In this document: piece after piece, positions 1 to 58,200 of the stretch | How positions within the stretch are numbered: the stretch's first letter is position 1 | Layout: each line of letters starts with the position of its first letter | From: a virus | Lineage: Duplodnaviria > Caudoviricetes | Direction: 5' to 3' (one strand) | Length of the DNA: 64,000 nucleotides | Virus record (IMG/VR): IMGVR_UViG_3300020471_000006 | Coordinates: 64,001 to 128,000 of that record | Program-made: the position numbers and the translations under genes | Notes under the pieces: model-generated | What the model saw: only the letters and a program-made list of their open reading frames with translations | Databases searched by the model: none | What the model was told of the DNA's origin: nothing

Positions 1-3000
1 AAACTAACAGTTAACAATCATGGATTCTCTAATGGTGATTACATCAAGTTAGATGATGAATCTCTAACTCTGACATGTGACCTTGATGGAAACGTAAGTC
101 AGAAAAAATATCCACGGGCAGGATTTGACCCTGTAAGTTCAAGGTGGTTGAAGATTGCTGATAAGACTACCAATACATTTGAAGTCAATGTAGGAATCTC
201 TTCTGATAAGTCAGTACATTCATTTGTATCTGCTGTTGCCAATGGATTACACAGACAGAATGGAACCATCACAGTTAACATTGGTGCTTCACCATTAAGT
301 AACTACACACCTACTGCTGCATCTTATAATGCAGTCACTGGTGATATGGTTCTTACTATTGGAGTACATGATCTACAAAATGGTGAGAAGATTAAGATAG
401 CACCTGATTCATTAACATTCCAGTGTGCTAAAGATGCTAATGCAACTAACCACACATATCCTAGAGTTACTGATCCAGCATACAATAGTGATCTAGAAAT
501 TAAGGATGCTACAACTACAACAATCACAGTTAATGTTGGTGCAGCTGCTGCTAATGATCAGTATGATCATACCTTTGTTAATGCAACTGCTAATGCTATC
601 ATCTACAACCAGAGATATACACATACATTTGTAAATTCTGTTGCTAATGCTGTTCATTTCGAACCAGCATCACCACATACATTTGTAAGTGCTATTGCTA
701 ATTCAATCAAACATTATCCTACTGCTAATCATACATTTGTAAGATCAGTTGCTGGTAATATTCAGAAAGAAACTGGAACATTTACAGTTAATGTAGGTGT
801 TGCTACTCTATCTAATCAGTATCCACACCAATTTAAGAGTGCGTCTGCTGGTGCTATTCAAACTGGTGGTGCATACTTCCATAAGTTTGTTAGTGCAGTA
901 AACAATTCCATACACAAAGTATTTACAGTTGCTGGTAATCAACAGTATCATAATCAAGATTGTATTGATGATGTTGTTGATCTACTTGAAGCAGTTGCTG
1001 ATAACATTGCTTATGGTGGTAATGATAAGACATGGGATGCAGCATACTCATACAAGACTGGTGCTCATGTAGCTGGTGAAGAAGATGAAACCAATTATGT
1101 ATTTGAGCAAGCACGTGAAATGGCTGCTCAAGCACTTAGAAACCAGAAGATTCTTGTTACTGGACATCATGGTCTTCCACAGGTATTTGATAAGAGTATT
1201 ACATTCAATGAGGCTGATCCTCCAACAGATAGATTTGGTGATGCTCGTAACTTAGTTGTTGCTAACAAACTACTCATTGCTGATGAAGCATACGAGAGAA
1301 TGTTGGTACAACATCCTGGATTTGTTCCTCCAACAGGTAACCAACAGGATTGTAAGGATGACATCGTAGACTTCGTTGAAGAAGTTTCATATAACCTAGC
1401 ATATGGTGGTAACGATAGAGTTTGGGAGATGACCGATCTCTATGTACAGGGTATGGTTCAAGAGGTTGCTGGAGAAGAAACACAAACTATCCAAGCACTT
1501 AATCATGCACGTGATTTGATGATTCAAATCGCTAGGAATGAGAACATTGTAACACTTGGTTCTCATGGACGTACACAGGTTAGGGACACTACTATTACTG
1601 GTAGCGTTGCTCCTCATGTAAGTAACAGACATGCTGATGCTAAGAATCTAATCTTGGCTAACGTTGAGTTTGCAGCAGAGGTAGCATTGGGTAGAATGAT
1701 TGCTCAGTTCCCTTCATATTCATGGCAAGCTGGTTACAGTTCTGCTGATTGTTTAGATGATCTTAAAGATGTAGTTAAAGTTGTTGCACATAACACAGGT
1801 TATGGTGGTAACCATAGAGTATGGGATGCTGCTAACCTTTATGTTGCAGGTGCTCATGCTGCTGGATCTGAGAGTGAAACTATCTTTGCATTCAATGCAG
1901 TACGTGACATCATCAAAGAGATTGCTACTAACGTAGAAGTTACTGTTGGTGGTCACACATCATTAACTCAGACAAGAGATCTTACCATTACTAATGGTGT
2001 TACTAATGGAGATTGTAATGTTGTATTGAGTGCTATTGATACTTTAGTTGCTATCTTAACTGGCACAATATCTGATCCAACATCACTACAAGGTATAACA
2101 CGTACAGATTCTGTTGGTCCTTGTGAGGACATGAGATCTGCTGTTGGTGTTCTTACTAAGATTGTAACTGATGCTATTTCAGATCCTAGTACACTATCTG
2201 GTAAGAAGCATACAGTAACTACATCAACTTATGATCCTGCAACTGGTTGGTTAACACTTGATATTGGTAATCATAGTTATACAAATGGAACCAGTGTACA
2301 CATCGTTGATAACTCACTAACATTTACATGTGAGAGAGATAACAACGCAACAAATCATACTTATCCACGTTCAACCGACCCAGCTTCAAACAATGATCCT
2401 ACCATTACTGGCACTACTGCTACCACAATCACGGTTAATGTTGGTGTATCATCTGATACGTCAGTTCATACCTTCGTCAGTGCATCAGAGAAAATCGTAG
2501 TTGGTGGAGTTACAAGAACTCCTTCAGTTGGATCATGTGAAGATGTAAGATCAACACTTAATTCACTATTCAAGATTGTTATTGATACAGTTGAAACACC
2601 AACATCTCTTGATGGTGTAACAAGAACCATTTCTAATGGTGCTTGTCAACAGGTTGCATCTACAATCACAACTCTCTACCAGATAATCACTGGAACTATC
2701 AACTCTGCTTCTTATCTTGACAGTGTTGAAAGGAACCCTGTTCCTCTTGGTCTAGAGTTTGGTCCTTCTATTAATGCTAACGCAACTAGCACTAACTCTT
2801 ACTTACACTTTGAGTTTGCTGATGCAGTATACACAGCTCTTACTAGAACAGTTGACAATACTATCACACAGAATACAACGTATCCTCAGTGTGTTGATCA
2901 AGCAAATGCTATTCGTCAATACTTCGCTAATATTAGCACAATTATCCAAACTGGATTGGGTAGTGTGCCACGTCAACAACCATCACAGTTAACTACATCA

Positions 3001-18647: not shown

Positions 18648-18841
18648 AGAAATTAGACAATCCGTATCTATTAGACGATAAGTTTATGATGCCAGGATTT
18701 GTTACTAAAGATCCTTATGGTGAATGGGCTGCTGTTCCTTGTGCTGGTAAGCATAACAGGTACATGGTCATACACAATGGTGAAATACTCAAGGCATGCA
18801 GTTATGATGTTGCCTTCAATTTAATGATGAAACACTATTAA
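18617..18841 (+). CDS. Hypothetical protein (start may be ATG 18686)
   Basis: ORF fills the gap and its stop overlaps the methyltransferase ATG (TAATG). Confidence 0.55.
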   Translation: MAKRTRKPKLEKLDNPYLLDDKFMMPGFVTKDPYGEWAAVPCAGKHNRYMVIHNGEILKACSYDVAFNLMMKHY

Positions 18842-19773
18842 TGAAAGATTACATATTATTTGGTGACTGTCTTGACTCACTCAAGATAATTGCAAATGAA
18901 GAACAGAAGGCACGTATGTGTGTCACATCTCCACCTTACTATGGTTTGAGAAACTATGGTGATGAAGAGAAACAGTTAGGTCAGGAACAATCACCTGAAG
19001 AGTATATTGATAATATGGTTAATGTCTTTCGTTTAGTAAGAGATTGTCTTACTGATGATGGTACACTATGGTTAAACATAGGTGATTCATATTATAATTA
19101 CAGAAAGGATGGATGTATACCTAAACAAACATTCTCTCAAAACAGACAAGACTTACCTAAAACTACACCACGTAGATCTAATAAACTTGTAGGATACAAA
19201 GATAAAGATCTTATTGGTATACCTTGGATGCTTGCATTTGCACTACGTGCTGATGGTTGGTATCTAAGGCAGGATATTATATGGCATAAACCAAATCCAA
19301 TGCCAGAGTCAGTTAGAGATCGTTGTACTAAAGCACATGAGTACATATTTCTATTAAGTAAGAGTAAATACTATCACTATGACAACGAAGCAATCAAAGA
19401 ACCTGCAAAGGACTGGGGTACAAGAGACAGAACAAATGGAAAGTACCACAATCCAGGATCAGGACTGCAACCGCATACAGGTCTTACAAAATCATATACA
19501 AAACGCAATAAACGCTCTGTCTGGTCAGTAAATAAGAAACCATACAAGGGTGCTCACTTTGCTACATATCCCGAAGAACTCATTGAACCATGCATCCTCG
19601 CAGGTTCGGAGAAGGGTGATATAGTATTAGATCCGTTCATGGGTAGTGGCACTACCGCATATGTTGCTAAGAAACATAGTAGAGCATACAGAGGGTGTGA
19701 ATTGCATAAGGAGTATGACAGTTTAATAAGTGACCGTATTCGCACCATTCCAAACAAATTACCGTTATACTAA
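18841..19773 (+). CDS. DNA methyltransferase (N4-cytosine/N6-adenine, beta class)
   Basis: Catalytic TSPPYYG near N-terminus, IIWHKPNPMP, HFATYP, SAM-binding VLDPFMGSGTT near C-terminus. Confidence 0.92.
   Translation: MKDYILFGDCLDSLKIIANEEQKARMCVTSPPYYGLRNYGDEEKQLGQEQSPEEYIDNMVNVFRLVRDCLTDDGTLWLNIGDSYYNYRKDGCIPKQTFSQNRQDLPKTTPRRSNKLVGYKDKDLIGIPWMLAFALRADGWYLRQDIIWHKPNPMPESVRDRCTKAHEYIFLLSKSKYYHYDNEAIKEPAKDWGTRDRTNGKYHNPGSGLQPHTGLTKSYTKRNKRSVWSVNKKPYKGAHFATYPEELIEPCILAGSEKGDIVLDPFMGSGTTAYVAKKHSRAYRGCELHKEYDSLISDRIRTIPNKLPLY
19766..19771 (+). promoter_or_regulatory. Candidate -10 box (TATACT) for the structured RNA
   Basis: TATACT ends 5 nt before the first base of the 13-bp terminal helix; no convincing -35. 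Confidence 0.4.
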
Positions 19774-19776
19774 GAA

Positions 19777-20021
19777 TGTTGAGAGGAACTGATGTGGTTC
19801 CTATGCCCCAAACCTACTGACTAGTCTGACTTAGAAGCAGACACATGACCGTTGGTAGAAACCTATTACTGCACATGACAGATGGTTGAGACTCTTAATT
19901 ATACTTCGTAAAGGAGTTAGCATAGAGTCAAGTGGTGGGGGTTCAGGTGTAAGCGATTCCCATAGGGTAAATTTGGGCAACTGGGTGAAACCTAGATCAT
20001 TGCCCCACGTTCCTCTCAACA
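19777..20021 (+). ncRNA. Candidate ~245-nt multi-stem non-coding RNA
   Basis: Perfect 13-bp terminal inverted repeat TGTTGAGAGGAAC (19777-89)/GTTCCTCTCAACA (20009-21) enclosing at least six further helices; no convincing + strand ORF. Confidence 0.7.
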
Positions 20022-20040
20022 CCCCATTATATTTTGAACG

Positions 20041-20460
20041 ATGCCTTCTACAGTATCACAACAACAAAAAGCAAGATTCTTTGCTGAAGGACACACACTC
20101 CCTACATGTGTGAATGATGGTTGTAATAATAATGTACAGGTAAGAGAGTGGAAGTATTGGTCATTCAAATCAGAATGTTCTAGTTGTGCCACTGCACGTA
20201 AGAAAGGAGTTGATAGACCTAATGTTACAAGACATAAAAAGAACTATTGCGAAAACAACGATGGTCATCTAGGATGGACATGTCCTGTATCCACATTCGT
20301 AGGATTTGAGACTAGTCTTGACTTAGACCATTTAGATGGTGATCATCATAACAATGTTCCTAGTAATGTCAAGACATACTGTAAACTATGTCATGGACGT
20401 AAATCAATATTAAATGGAGACTGTAACAGTAACAAATCATCATCGAGGAGTATTGGATGA
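20041..20460 (+). CDS. Small HNH endonuclease with Cys-rich (zinc-binding) N-terminus
   Basis: LDLDHLDGDHHNNVPSNVKTYCKLCH HNH signature; CVNDGC and CSSC upstream. Confidence 0.85.
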   Translation: MPSTVSQQQKARFFAEGHTLPTCVNDGCNNNVQVREWKYWSFKSECSSCATARKKGVDRPNVTRHKKNYCENNDGHLGWTCPVSTFVGFETSLDLDHLDGDHHNNVPSNVKTYCKLCHGRKSILNGDCNSNKSSSRSIG

Positions 20461-21236
20461 TCATACATGATGATGCATTAAATCATTTAACTAAGATGGA
20501 TGGAGATAGTATACACCTTACGTGTACATCTCCTCCATATTTTAATGCAAAGGCATACGCACAGTGGCCAACATATGATAAGTATCTACAATTCCTTGAG
20601 GATATATTCCGTGAAGTTCACAGAGTCACAGTACAAGGAAGGATGTGTGCTGTTAATTTATCACCAGTAATACAAGCACGTGAGTCAAGAGCACATGAAA
20701 GTAAGAGACTTGCGATACCATTCCACTTCTTTAGTATTATGGAGAGATTGGGATGGCAATACATTGATGATATTATATGGTTGAAACCAGAAGGATCTGC
20801 TGTTAATCGTAACGGTGGATTCTATCAGCATCGTAAACCAGTAGCATACAAACCAAATCTTGTTACAGAGACTATATTAATATTCAAGAAGCCTGCACCA
20901 TTCCTTATAGATAAGACAGTGCGTTCCTATGCTCCTGATATATTAGAACAATCATTAGTACCTGATGGTTATGAAAGATCAAATGTATGGCAGTTTAATC
21001 CTGAGACTACATCAAAGCATTTAGCACCATACCCTAAAGAACTATCAGATAAGATTGTACAATACTATTCATTTGTGAATGATGTTGTTCTTGATCCGTT
21101 CATGGGGTCAGGCACTACTGCGATATCATGTCTAGATCATGACAGAAAGTATATTGGTATTGAAATTCATGAAGAGTATGTTAAGATGGCAAATGATCGT
21201 ATTAAGCGTCACACACCACTTAAGAGGTTTCTATGA
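20457..21236 (+). CDS. Second DNA methyltransferase (N4-cytosine/N6-adenine, beta class)
   Basis: TSPPYFN, IIWLKPE, HLAPYP, VLDPFMGSGTTA; ATGA overlap with HNH stop. Confidence 0.92.
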   Translation: MIIHDDALNHLTKMDGDSIHLTCTSPPYFNAKAYAQWPTYDKYLQFLEDIFREVHRVTVQGRMCAVNLSPVIQARESRAHESKRLAIPFHFFSIMERLGWQYIDDIIWLKPEGSAVNRNGGFYQHRKPVAYKPNLVTETILIFKKPAPFLIDKTVRSYAPDILEQSLVPDGYERSNVWQFNPETTSKHLAPYPKELSDKIVQYYSFVNDVVLDPFMGSGTTAISCLDHDRKYIGIEIHEEYVKMANDRIKRHTPLKRFL

Positions 21237-55218: not shown

Positions 55219-58200
55219 TAAGACTGATACCTTTGAAGTTCAAAGGCAGAAGATAAACCAGATAGGGTCTGAGTTTGATACGTTTGTGACGAATCAGACG
55301 ACTCTGAACTCTACCTTCATCGAACTGACTGATATATCAGTTACCAAACTGAATGCAGGTACTGCTAACTTAACTTATGATAATACTACTGGTGTACTGA
55401 CATATACTCCACCAGATTTATCAAACTTTATAACATCAATTGGTGATGCTATTCAGGATGCAGACTTCACTACTGCTGGTCTGATGAAGACTGATGGTGC
55501 TGGAAATTATAGTGTAGTAACAGATAACTCTTCTAATTGGATTGCTTTAACAGATCTTTCTGTTACTCAACTTGCAGCAGGTAACAACGGACTTTCATAT
55601 GATAATACAACTGGTGTATTAACATTCACACCACAAGATGTATCTGGATTCTTGTCATTAACAGGTATTTCTGTCAATACTCTTACTGCTGCTTCTGGTG
55701 GAGCATTATCTTATAGCAATACCACTGGTGTATTCTCATATACTCCACCAGATCTATCTGGTTATCTAACATCATTACCAACTCATAGTATTGATGATCA
55801 TGATGATGTTGACACAACTGGAGTAGCAGACGGCAAAATTCTTAAATATGATGCTTCAGCATCTTCATTTGTCATTGCTGATGATGGTGGTGGTACTATC
55901 CCAGATCTTCAAGATGTTTGTGATCAAGATCCAGTAACTACGACAGATATAACAGCAAAAGATTTAATATGTGCTGATGCTGGACTGTTCCAAATTGGAA
56001 CATCACAATATGCAACAATTGGATATAGTAATCTCGGAAAGATTATATATCAAGGTAACAACAGTGGTTTTGATGTAATATCAACCAGTCTTAATTGGAT
56101 TTCTGGATCTACTACAGTAGCTGAATTGTCATCTACTGGATTGAATATTATTGGTACTGTCACTTCTGATGGATCAACTACTGATGGTGATGCTACATTT
56201 AAGGGTGGTACTGCTGATCTTGTTTGGGATAAATCAGATAATTGTCTGTACTTCTATGGTGGTACTACCATAAAAGATGCTAGTGGTGATAAAGGAACAT
56301 TAGGACAGGTATTAGGTGCTAATGGAGCTGCTGGTCTTGATTGGTTAGATTTTGACTTAGATAATCTTGCCAATGTTAATATTACATCTCTACAAGATAC
56401 ACAAACTATTAAATGGGATGCTGCTACTAATAAGTGGGTAAATGCTTCTAGTGCAGGTGGTTCAGGAGGGGAAGGTATTTCATTATCAGATATTTCTGTA
56501 GGTGCTAATGGTGCTGCTACTGGTGGTGGATCACTTTCATATAATGATATAACTGGTGTATTTACATTTAGTCCAGCAGTTGTAGGTAACTTTATTCAAT
56601 TGACAGATATTTCTGTTGGTGCAGAAGGTGCTGCGGCTGGAGATGGTGGTATATCCTATGATGATAGTACAGGTGTACTAACATACTCACCTCCAGATCT
56701 ATCTGGTTATCTAACTGGATATACTGAGACAGCAGATCTTCAGGATGTTACATCCAATGGAGCAACAACGAATGTTGCAACAACTATCTTTACTGGTGGT
56801 ACTGGTGCTGCTCGTTTAGATGTACAAAATGCTGGAGGTTATGCTATCAGTTTAAATGCTGCTTCTGGTGTTGGAATTAATACTGCTGATGGTGTTGGAC
56901 TTTATATTGGTAATATTTCCACTAATGTATGGAGAGCAAAGATTGAAGGATCTACTGGTGATATAACTGGTAACAAATTTGTTAAGACAAGCGGAACATC
57001 ATCACAATTCTTAAAGGCAGATGGTTCTGTTGATAGTAGTACATATCTAACTTCAATAGACATTAGTTCTGAGAACCTCAACGATCTTGCTGACGTTAAT
57101 GCTGGAACCCCTACTGATGGACACGTATTGAAATGGGATGCTGGTACATCTAAATGGATTGCTGCTGCTGACCAAACAGCAACAGGTGGTTCTGGTATAT
57201 CATTAACAGATCTTTCTGTAACCACTAACACAGCAGGTACAGCAGCGTTATCTTACAACACTTCAAATGGTGTGTTCTCATACACTCCTCCTGATCTTTC
57301 TGCTGTAAGTACAGACCTAACAGCATTCTCTGTTGGTTCTAATGCTACTGCTTCAGGTGGTGGTGGACTTGCATACAACAACACAAATGGTGTATTCACA
57401 TATACTCCTCCAGATCTTAGTAGTTACGTAACTGGTCTCTCTATGGGAGAACTTGATGATGTAACTATAACAGGATCACCAGCACTGAATTCAGTATTGA
57501 AATGGAGTGGTACAGCTTGGGTAAATGGAACTGTTGCATCAGGTGGTCTTGATCATGTTGTAGAAGATACTTCTCCACAGTTAGGTGGTAATTTAGATTG
57601 TCAAAGTGCAAATGTAGATTTCTATACTGGTGGTGCTTGTTTCGGTGGAGACAGTGGATCATATGCACCTAGATTGTATATTAGTCATACTACAACATCT
57701 GGTGGTACATCATTTATAGATGATGCTAGTGCTAATGGTTTAAACATCCTATATGGAAGTGGTTCTTTTGGTAAGATCGTATTTAAAAATAGAACAGGAA
57801 GTACTCAATTAACCATTAATGATGCTAATGGTGTCAAAGTTGCATCAAAACTAGACTTGTCTAGTTCTACTATCCATGATGGTACTAACACAGGTACATC
57901 TGGTCAGGTTCTAACTTCTACAGCAACAGGGGTAGCATGGTCAACTGGTCTAACATTAAGTTCACTTTCTGTAGGTAGTGAAGGAACAGCATCTGGTGAT
58001 GGTTCTATTTCATATAATAATACAAACGGTGTATTCACATATACTCCACCAGATTTAAGTGATTTCTTAGATAGTACTTCTGCTCTTGCAGATCTATCTG
58101 ATGTTGTTATTACTGGTTCCCCTCAGTCTGGTCAGGTAATCAAATGGGATAATGCTACTAGTAAGTGGACTAACCAAGCAGATGCAGCAGGTGGAGCAGT

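Follow-up and report, generated by a model that had tools for sequence, protein, structure and literature searches.

The element at positions 19777–20021 on the plus strand of the window (the whole 64-kb stretch of viral DNA that was analysed) is one copy of an unannotated family of structured RNAs found in marine T4-like cyanomyoviruses. It is a real RNA of several helices, with a perfect 13-bp helix closing it off; compensatory change maintains the helices, and the loops hardly vary. The RNA is linked to no particular neighbouring gene. We favour, with moderate confidence, the explanation that it is an exchangeable promoter-proximal RNA cassette, a factor-binding folded domain independent of any gene, and not a partner of the HNH gene that follows it. 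T4-like cyanophages infect the ocean's most abundant phototrophs, and most of what their hyperplastic early regions contain is unexplained. Part of this "dark" intergenic DNA encodes a large RNA family of no fewer than 149 loci, which covaries strongly and has an invariant core. Its members behave as exchangeable cassettes and carry plug-in modules common to other RNA families. Such invariance, combined with a tertiary-module architecture, is of the grade usual for riboswitches and ribozymes.

The fold runs in the order P1, bulge, P1b, P2, P3 (with a variable insert), J3/2, P2', UAAAUUU, P4, P1b' and P1', and five helices are supported (P1, P1b, P2, P3 and P4). All helices listed by a first-pass annotation of this DNA are present where it placed them, and the collection of homologues that it proposed shows strong covariation for its pairings P1, P2 and P4. 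Across 29 short copies, 95.9% of cells are paired and double-sided changes occur at 18 of 34 pairs, a value that none of 500 shuffles reaches; sliding the 3' partners out of register lowers pairing to 34–54%. RNAalifold independently recovers the same helices. P1b is 100% paired, with GTG/CAC covarying with ACG/CGT, and P2 is likewise 100% paired, with covariation at five of its seven pairs and up to four pair types. P4 shows the compensatory variants GGGC/GCCC, GGAC/GTCC and GGTC/GACC, and its inner stem varies too. P3 is conserved and 98% paired, with zero both-side changes.

The nearly invariant loops are AGGUGYAAGCGAUUCC, UAAAUUU and GGUGAAACC, and variation in J3/2, for which a mini-hairpin is proposed, is confined to its first 3–4 nt and one U/C position. 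Being invariant, these loops give no covariation for probing tertiary contacts. A double T-loop is recognized by two pentaloops, one of the AG..A and one of the UG..A type (PMC3664808). The candidate pentaloops of the present RNA, UGAAA at the P4 apex and UGUAA in J3/2, are both of the UG..A type, with no clean AG..A, and all their positions are invariant.

Several observations place the RNA on the plus strand. Its folding energy there is −83.4 kcal/mol (z = −2.99, 0 of 200 shuffles), and the minus strand folds more weakly (z = −1.71). The opening U.G pair of P2 is invariant in 29 of 29 short copies, which indicates a plus-strand RNA, and G.U pairs are many. The P1 arms are 100% complementary over 13 bp, yet this helix is weak evidence by itself, since about 0.4 perfect 13-bp inverted pairs no more than 400 nt apart are expected (our own arithmetic) and two occur in the 64-kb window, P1 included; the other (49536/49783), internal to a 2701-aa ORF, was attributed to chance. 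A covariance model built from short homologues only matches 19782–20016 with 94.5 bits (E 8.5e-26), and the RNA is present once in the 202.5-kb genome to which the window belongs. The first-pass annotation was also right about the TATACT box, the 19 nt that separate the RNA from the HNH ATG, and the CACATGAC direct repeat, and its remark that the region is GC-richer than its flanks holds in a modest degree (0.445 vs 0.33–0.41).

Table 1. Coordinates of the RNA, its parts and its surroundings in the window.
Feature	Position	Strand	Remarks
Degenerate palindrome GACAGTT-N4-AAGTGAC	19717..19734	+	2 mismatches to GACAGTTNNNNAACTGTC
−10-like hexamer TATACT	19766..19771	+	Overlaps upstream methyltransferase stop codon; 7 nt before TTGAG of P1
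P1 5' strand TGTTGAGAGGAAC	19777..19789	+	8 of 9 P1 pairs change on both sides in homologues
P1b 5' strand GTG	19794..19796	+	Follows TGAT bulge; partner CAC 20006–20008
P2 5' strand TCCTATG	19799..19805	+	First pair is the invariant U.G
P3 5' strand CCCCA	19806..19810	+	Homologue alignment, covariance model
Lineage-variable insert in P3 loop	19811..19935	+	125–126 nt here by coordinates/model alignment
Nested "family B" module	19814..19858	+	CTACTGA/TTGGTAG enclosing GTCTG-ACTTAGAAG-CAGAC and ACATGACCG
Accessory hairpin GACTCT/AGAGTC, ACTTC/GGAGT	19890..19929	+	GUAAA loop; recurrent plug-in
P3 3' strand TGGGG	19936..19940	+	Homologue alignment, covariance model
J3/2, single-stranded UUCAGGUGUAAGCGAUUCC	19942..19960	+	Nearly invariant; core AGGUGYAAGCGAUUCC
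P2 3' strand CATAGGG	19961..19967	+	Covariation, RNAalifold
J2/4 UAAAUUU	19968..19974	+	Invariant
P4 hairpin GGGCAA..TTGCCC, inner CTGGGT/ACCTAG	19975..20005	+	Invariant apex GGUGAAACC
P1b 3' strand CAC and P1 3' strand GTTCCTCTCAACA	20006..20021	+	Complementarity, covariation
Second −10-like hexamer TATATT	20028..20033	+	7 nt before HNH ATG; sequence reading only
139-aa HNH-motif protein	20041..20460	+	PHROG HNH endonuclease families, best E 3.7e-5
Methyltransferase	20457–21236		ATGA overlap with HNH gene

The family comprises 149 loci with 121 distinct 3' halves, all of them viral, and is usually single-copy per genome. Its carriers include P-SSM2, P-SSM5, single-virus genomes and IMG/VR marine contigs; an exact 18-mer from J3/2 occurs in at least 119 IMG/VR contigs. 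The cultured phages P-SSM2 and P-SSM5 hold a minimal 120-nt version, a defined and testable object for RNA function in early infection; in P-SSM2 it lies at about 56,700–56,820 of NC_006883.2. In a scan of 185,579 genomes of bacteria and archaea, the 18-mer had 22 matches in unrelated taxa, near the approximately 17 estimated by chance, and none of the 22 passes the covariance model; hence the family appears restricted to viruses. No divergent copies beyond those already known were found in about 1.2 Mb of related loci and the window's own genome. A stand-alone phage RNA, which the first-pass annotation had kept as its fallback reading, is supported.

Among copies, the P3 loop can be as short as 9 nt or exceed 220 nt, and the insert in the window is built of modules that recur in other cyanophage RNAs. 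One of these corresponds to the inner part of RNAs of another cyanophage family, called family B, with blastn matches in intergenic regions of P-SSM7, S-SSM4 and S-SSM6b; its CTACTGA/TTGGTAG and GTCTG/CAGAC stems recur with compensatory changes in RNAs of P-SSM7 and P-SSM2, in an alignment made by eye. Another is the accessory hairpin, which has homologues in 17 loci and a covarying inner stem. It is missing from the closest relatives, with L084, L026 and L128–130 lacking exactly these 40 nt, and RNA-library contigs omit the same segment. Plug-in modules with GNRA-like loops, common to several RNAs, suggest a tertiary-structured RNA.

TATACT is probably the promoter of an RNA–HNH–methyltransferase transcript. 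Of 82 unique upstream contexts, about 50 have a TAnnnT hexamer at exactly this 7-nt distance from P1, with differing hexamers and spacers, and a −10 box at this distance in most copies marks the RNA as a promoter-proximal cassette. About one-third of copies have other RNA modules upstream instead of a −10 box at fixed distance. Relatives without the RNA retain the same TATACT, and TATATT occurs in RNA-bearing variants of the methyltransferase–HNH slot. The orientation relative to transcription is always sense, and no terminator was found between the RNA and the HNH gene in the window. RNA-library contigs from four studies span the element, and some continue from the RNA into the HNH gene; these are contigs only, and one begins upstream of the −10 box, so they may reflect read-through or DNA carry-over.

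The HNH gene is an unrelated neighbour of the RNA, and its conserved partner is the downstream methyltransferase, a gene of the same type lying 0–12 nt after HNH in about 45 of 57 loci. The protein carries the motif DHLDGDHHNN..N..CKLCH in its translation; its PHROG matches are weak (E 3.7e-5 to 1e-3, residues ~60–130), no Pfam domain is detected at E up to 0.01, and I-HmuI is its sole PDB match (E 0.5). HNH is present in 3 of 126 RNA-bearing loci, and the RNA in 6 of 57 HNH-bearing loci. In relatives, the slot between the methyltransferase stop or −10 box and the HNH start contains no RNA, the same RNA carrying other inserts, or an RNA of another kind. Thus L131, in which HNH is 99% identical, has a 19–20-nt spacer in place of the RNA, as have L134 and L136; L137 has a different RNA there; L026 and L132 have a 56-aa ORF between RNA and HNH; and in L124 a coding sequence abuts HNH, with the RNA 4.4 kb away. 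The different RNA found in the slot has its closing helix in common with the window RNA.

Comparison with described RNA classes confirms the expectation that no Rfam family would fit. Rfam 15, searched both at the gathering threshold and with E values up to 10, yields no relevant match in the window, in the short P-SSM2 copy or in 20 related loci. The manA, wcaG, glnA, PhotoRC-II and abiF models have no match in the window, P-SSM2 and 20 related loci (126 kb), and ARAGORN finds 0 tRNA or tmRNA genes in the window and 0 in 16 related loci. No account of this RNA turned up in the literature outside the supplement of a 10,006-candidate viral RNA survey (PMC10690425). A group I intron with an HNH homing ORF was rejected because both flanking methyltransferases are complete (PF01555 profile coverage 2–217 and 1–220 of 221); Rfam intron models did not match. 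A hammerhead-like CUGAUG...GAAA was ruled out since CUGAUG is confined to this lineage. The suggestion of an RNA antitoxin, as in type III (ToxIN-like) toxin–antitoxin systems, is contradicted by the lack of ToxI-like tandem repeats: Tandem Repeats Finder returns 0 rows at 19600–20500, and the sole direct repeat is one 8-mer pair. The window RNA resembles the omega RNA/HEARO of IscB in being a structured RNA of about 200–300 nt beside the gene of an HNH-containing nuclease. It differs in having no guide-like variable end, the HEARO model does not match, the linkage is not conserved, and the 139-aa protein, with an HNH motif only and no RuvC or PLMP region, is not IscB, as had been recognized.

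manA (RF01745) and wcaG (RF01761) are likewise conserved covarying RNAs almost entirely confined to marine metagenomes and cyanomyoviruses, are likewise potential 5' UTRs (PMC2864571), and can cluster in short RNA-rich regions (PMC9964418, Table 4). They differ from the window RNA in fold and invariant sequences, and a nested exchangeable module architecture is not known for either motif.

What follows a member of the family described here is often not a gene but more RNA modules, in tandem arrays with structured modules and tRNA-like elements; ARAGORN and Rfam detect no canonical tRNAs in the arrays of related cyanophage loci. The T4 tRNA region encodes stable small RNAs, species 1 and 2 (rnaC and rnaD), which are structured and co-transcribed with tRNAs. 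By description only, these resemble the cyanophage RNAs as phage structured RNAs in arrays with tRNA or tRNA-like elements; the cyanophage RNAs differ in probably starting at their own promoters and in having arrays without canonical tRNAs. PeSL, from the work of Arbiol et al. in 2010, are reportedly mobile regulatory cassettes of T4-type phages bounded by repeated promoters and hairpins. As seen here, they occupy hyperplastic early regions in which units are shuffled, inserted or lost at the same slot. Their cargo consists of ORFs and simple hairpins, whereas the cargo here is a large covarying RNA with an invariant core.

Under the favoured explanation of an exchangeable cassette, transcription from the TATACT box would make P1 the 5' end of the HNH–methyltransferase transcript, and the RNA would be shuffled like the neighbouring early gene cassettes. 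Its invariant loops may come together in a tertiary pocket for a factor of the host or the phage, and the RNA could act in the leader or once cut free, whatever gene is downstream. An orphan riboswitch or cis-regulatory leader, in which the core aptamer would sense a metabolite or ion and control downstream early genes, is unlikely. Judged by generic riboswitch criteria, the RNA has an aptamer-like core with covarying helices, invariant junctions and a stem of variable length. It adjoins a promoter, many copies lie 15–35 nt upstream of a start codon (which fits a cis-acting leader too), a minority have a U-run after P1, and two further candidates for orphan riboswitches, manA and wcaG, are present in cyanophages (PMC2864571). 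However, the ORFs downstream belong to more than 30 clusters unrelated to one another, with no metabolic theme, RNA modules often take the place of a gene, no consistent downstream gene class, expression platform or terminator is found, and in the same slot relatives do without the RNA or carry another one. A put-like or protective 5' element, acting in cis on polymerase or blocking 5'-end-dependent RNases, is improbable. Such an element would let long early transcripts get past the hairpins between cassettes. The put RNAs of HK022, antiterminators of about 70 nt made of two simple stem-loops, are similar by description only, as promoter-proximal, gene-independent, sense-oriented RNAs that head early transcripts. 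The location of the window RNA exactly at the predicted transcript start, its independence of the downstream gene, its constant sense orientation and the absence of a terminator after it agree with this reading. However, no T4-like phage is known to use such RNAs, the family has one copy per genome despite many early promoters, and its sequence invariance far exceeds the needs of simple 5' protection.

A self-cleaving or catalytic RNA, or a processing signal that punctuates the RNA module arrays, is highly improbable: the compact multi-junction fold, the invariant core, the optional peripheral hairpins with GNRA-like loops and the tandem arrays would suit it, but Rfam ribozyme models do not match at E up to 10, short form included, and no conserved cleavage-site context was found. 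Very little probability attaches to a DNA-level element (a recombination site, a MITE-like inverted-repeat element or an origin). Variable cargo between inverted repeats, modules gained and lost as discrete insertions and deletions, and a closing helix common to two RNA families in one slot could all be read that way; yet on the opposite strand, or in cruciforms of the duplex, the invariant U.G pair and the many G.U pairs would turn into A.C mismatches, covariation keeps five helices including long-range ones, the orientation to transcription is constant, and no target-site duplications are seen. The RNA–HNH ribonucleoprotein put forward by the first-pass annotation (guide, scaffold or antitoxin) is the least probable reading of all. 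It draws on the close spacing of RNA and gene on the same strand, with no intervening terminator, in this genome and its closest relatives. Against it stand the linkage counts, the nearly identical HNH without the RNA, a gap that can hold other RNAs or an ORF, the constant pairing of HNH with the methyltransferase, and the lack of repeats and of a hypervariable guide-like segment; the variable part is a structured insert of shared modules. The analysis thereby removes the attractive but mistaken idea of a miniature RNA-guided HNH nuclease.

A broader proposal, to which we give slightly less than an even chance, is that the window RNA is the type member of a new functional class of phage RNA (ribozyme, orphan riboswitch or factor-binding). 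The class would belong to an undescribed superfamily of promoter-abutting cassettes that share a closing-helix/P2 skeleton, swap interiors, and nest modules and GNRA-like hairpins, forming a modular "RNA island" through cassette exchange.

Upstream of the RNA, the degenerate palindrome lies within the 3' end of the first methyltransferase gene and ends 31 nt before the −10 box; the window contains 12 such sites against 4.35 expected.

The family A element is a conserved RNA and not a chance fold. Across 29 distinct short copies aligned on the structure P1-P1b-P2-P3-P4, 95.9% of cells are paired and both sides have changed in 18 of 34 pairs, values reached in 0 of 500 shuffles. A stand-alone phage RNA was the fallback of the first-pass annotation, and this covariation among homologues upholds it. 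Shifting the 3′ partners by 1–3 columns lowers pairing to 34–54%. All cells in P2 pair (100%), with as many as four pair types per position, P1b alternates between GTG/CAC and ACG/CGT, and RNAalifold recovers the same five helices without a supplied structure. A model built from short copies only matches window positions 19782–20016 (94.5 bits, E = 8.5e-26) and places an insertion of 126 nt at the P3 loop. The first pair of P2 is U·G in all 29 copies, and G·U pairs are common; because these would be A·C mismatches on the other strand, the functional strand is plus and the molecule is RNA. Folding z-scores are −2.99 on the plus strand and −1.71 on the minus strand.

All helices listed in the first-pass annotation are present in the window at the positions it assigned, including the perfect 13-bp terminal helix. 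This closing helix is one of two perfect 13-bp inverted pairs spaced at most 400 nt apart in the whole window. It is unconvincing by itself because the other pair (49536–49548/49783–49795), probably a chance repeat, falls within a 2701-aa ORF.

The window derives from a complete virus genome of 202.5 kb, that of a T4-like cyanomyovirus, which carries one family A copy flanked on both sides by complete methyltransferase genes. The window methyltransferase and adjoining genes share 70–77% DNA identity with Prochlorococcus and Synechococcus myoviruses. By blastn, intergenic regions of P-SSM2, P-SSM5, P-SSM7 and several single-virus genomes contain fragments of the element; the P-SSM2 copy is compact (~120 nt), with a 9-nt loop replacing the 125-nt middle of the window element. 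At least 119 IMG/VR contigs contain the conserved 18-mer TTCAGGTGTAAGCGATTC, and a second scan with two other conserved blocks yielded ~20 more loci with a slightly different 18-mer. Family A comprises at least 149 loci with at least 121 distinct 3′ halves, the IMG/VR scans giving a lower bound. In bacterial genomes, the 18-mer appears only at about chance frequency, and the model rejects every such match. One IMG/VR contig (L021) holds two copies, 1218–1337 and 2127–2258 (minus strand), ~900 bp apart, of which one is short and the other bears an insert, separated by a 147-aa ORF homologous to PSSM2_070.

Family A is a new structured RNA family, unusual in its architecture of nested, exchangeable modules. 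Its closest known counterparts include the orphan manA and wcaG motifs, similar in hosts and kind of object but different in fold. PeSL cassettes shuffle in T4-type phages; they too are among the closest known, with similar genome dynamics but different cargo. No Rfam 15 family matches, even when the short form is searched with E up to 10, in line with the first-pass annotation, which could name no Rfam family for the RNA. The invariant strings have no match in the searched literature, and the only RNAs named in the consulted papers on cyanophage RNAs are CfrI, PhotoRC-II, wcaG, manA, glnA and abiF. A 2023 survey gives 10,006 predicted viral candidate RNAs (PMC10690425), among which the motif may stand unnamed.

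The P3 loop is an insertion hotspot, with inserts of 9 to >220 nt across copies, and two modules can be recognised in the window's copy. Module 1 represents the interior of family B, a second cyanophage RNA family built on the same GGUUCC-P2-GGGGUAA skeleton as family A; in P-SSM7 and P-SSM2 this family lies directly behind the methyltransferase. Inspection of families B to H was by eye. Family B starts 7–8 nt past a −10 box, usually right behind a methyltransferase gene, and takes the form GGGAAACAAAAGAGGTTCC...CTGAC-(variable insert)-AGAAGCAGGACATTACCGTTGGGGTAA...CCTCTTTTTGTTTCTCTCAC, with its own insertion hotspot and no Rfam family. Module 2, a hairpin, is missing from RNA-library contigs as well as from the closest relatives. 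It recurs in 17 other loci, where it sits in variable loops of several RNAs, family B among them. Covariation is seen in its inner stem (ACTTC/GGAGT, ACTTG/CAAGT, ACTGA/TCAGT), which carries a GYAAA loop, and copies measure ~34–40 nt with the form UCUUAAUUAGACUUCG-CAAA-GGAGUUAGCAUAGA. By analogy, its placement is as would be expected of an optional tertiary-contact module. The UGAAA and UGUAA loops, both UG..A pentaloops, may recall the double T-loop dock of the tRNA elbow (PMC3664808), but its AG..A signature is unmatched.

In related loci, family A has neighbouring arrays in which more conserved modules and also tRNA-like elements occur, none recognised by Rfam or ARAGORN. The modules lie downstream of family A copies, some nested within each other (L002 1740–1860 and 2590–2680; L006, L008, L016, L017, L051, L058, L066, L109 and others); examples are GGCAAGGATCTATGG...GTAAGTCC, GTGGTATGACTTAGTACCTG...CAGGTGAAGCACCTCTTGAGCATACCAC, CGAGGAGATGGATGTGCCTC... 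and ...CCCTTTGGTAGTTTCAGGGTTGGAGGCGATAGGAAACTACC. The tRNA-like elements, ~100–250 nt downstream in L008 and L045 and also present in L051, L057, L006, L042 and L063, combine a perfect T-arm (e.g. AGTGGTTCAATTCCACT) and acceptor-like ends with a long internal insertion; ARAGORN and the Rfam tRNA model both fail to call them.

Features of the family A element, its surroundings and related loci (L numbers)
Feature	Location	Detail
MT1	18841–19773	N6/N4 DNA methyltransferase, complete
TATACT	19766–19771	−10-like; overlaps MT1 stop codon; 7 nt before TTGAG of P1
Module 1	19814–19858	interior of family B RNA
Module 2	19890–19929	accessory hairpin, 40 nt; exactly missing in closest relatives
139-aa ORF	20041–20460	HNH motif; overlaps MT2 start by ATGA
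MT2	20457–21236	N6/N4 DNA methyltransferase, complete
Segment preceding P2		GGUUC; nearly invariant
Junction J3/2		AGGUGYAAGCGAUUCC; nearly invariant
Junction J2/4		UAAAUUU; nearly invariant
P4 apex		GGUGAAACC; nearly invariant
Family B	L001 2478–2575	P-SSM7
Family B	L002 ~1590–1730	P-SSM2
Family B, further loci	L015, L020, L021, L040, L062, L076, L115, L137	
Accessory hairpin	L068 7290–7323	
Accessory hairpin, further loci	L108, L051, L223, L082, L220, L036, L102, L121, L118, L073, L125	
MT1–HNH slot	L131 (HNH 99% identical)	19-nt spacer, RNA absent
MT1–HNH slot	L134, L136	20-nt spacer, RNA absent
MT1–HNH slot	L135	short family A copy and another module
MT1–HNH slot	L137	family B-like RNA, same closing helix
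MT1–HNH slot	L130	family A, different insert
MT1–HNH slot	L132, L026	family A and 56-aa ORF

A TAnnnT hexamer at exactly 7-nt spacing precedes ~50 of 82 copies with unique upstream contexts, a count made partly by eye. Both the hexamers (TATACT, TATTAT, TATAAT, TACAAT, TATAGT) and the 7-nt spacers differ among copies, and copies lacking the fixed-spacing hexamer are preceded by another RNA module. A degenerate palindrome copy ends 31 nt upstream of the −10 box. In the window, the family A RNA is followed by no terminator-like site ahead of either HNH or MT2. The contents of the slot between MT1 and the HNH gene differ among relatives, which identifies the RNA as cargo inserted at the start of the HNH-MT2 operon transcript. 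In RNA-bearing slot variants, a second −10-like hexamer, TATATT, stands 7 nt before the HNH ATG (window 20028–20040); judged by sequence, it would make the HNH mRNA leaderless or nearly so, and its placement suggests a cassette bounded by promoter repeats.

Contigs in public RNA libraries from four studies cover the element, one running from 19950 into the HNH and MT2 genes. These contigs show presence in RNA libraries rather than transcript ends, and DNA carry-over is possible. Summed depth, which counts contigs rather than reads, is maximal over the conserved 3′ core, where many phage variants are pooled.

Family A is a covarying, strand-specific, neighbour-independent, promoter-proximal and modular RNA with an invariant core and plug-in hairpins. 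Its function is most likely that of an autonomous factor-binding domain, which we infer would form the 5′ end of an early transcript and fold by itself, its invariant loops shaping a putative pocket where a host or phage factor binds. Such a binding domain fits three observations: the RNA does not depend on the downstream gene, is dispensable at the slot and interchanges with family B. An orphan riboswitch or leader would share the aptamer-like core and the nearby start codons, but the genes downstream are unrelated and an expression platform is absent. The RNA could instead be a put-like or 5′-protective cis element, or a ribozyme or processing signal. An element acting at the DNA level is disfavoured by the U·G and G·U pairs.

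Linkage, by which the first-pass annotation itself proposed to judge its main idea of an RNA-HNH ribonucleoprotein, refutes that idea. By tblastn, just 3 of 126 RNA-bearing loci have the HNH. Conversely, among 57 IMG/VR loci carrying HNH homologues (65–99% identity), the model finds family A RNA in 6, all six among the closest relatives (HNH identity at least 91%). At L124, a coding sequence abuts the HNH gene and the RNA is 4.4 kb away.

The HNH goes with MT2: an MT2-type methyltransferase follows it after 0–12 nt, or with an ATGA overlap, in ~45 of 57 loci. The 139-aa HNH and this N6/N4 methyltransferase form a conserved two-gene unit (window 20041–21236; loci L128–L184), located downstream of MT1 in the window or upstream of it in L124 and L141–L149. 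The unit may be a mobile nuclease-methylase module, either restriction-modification-like or homing.
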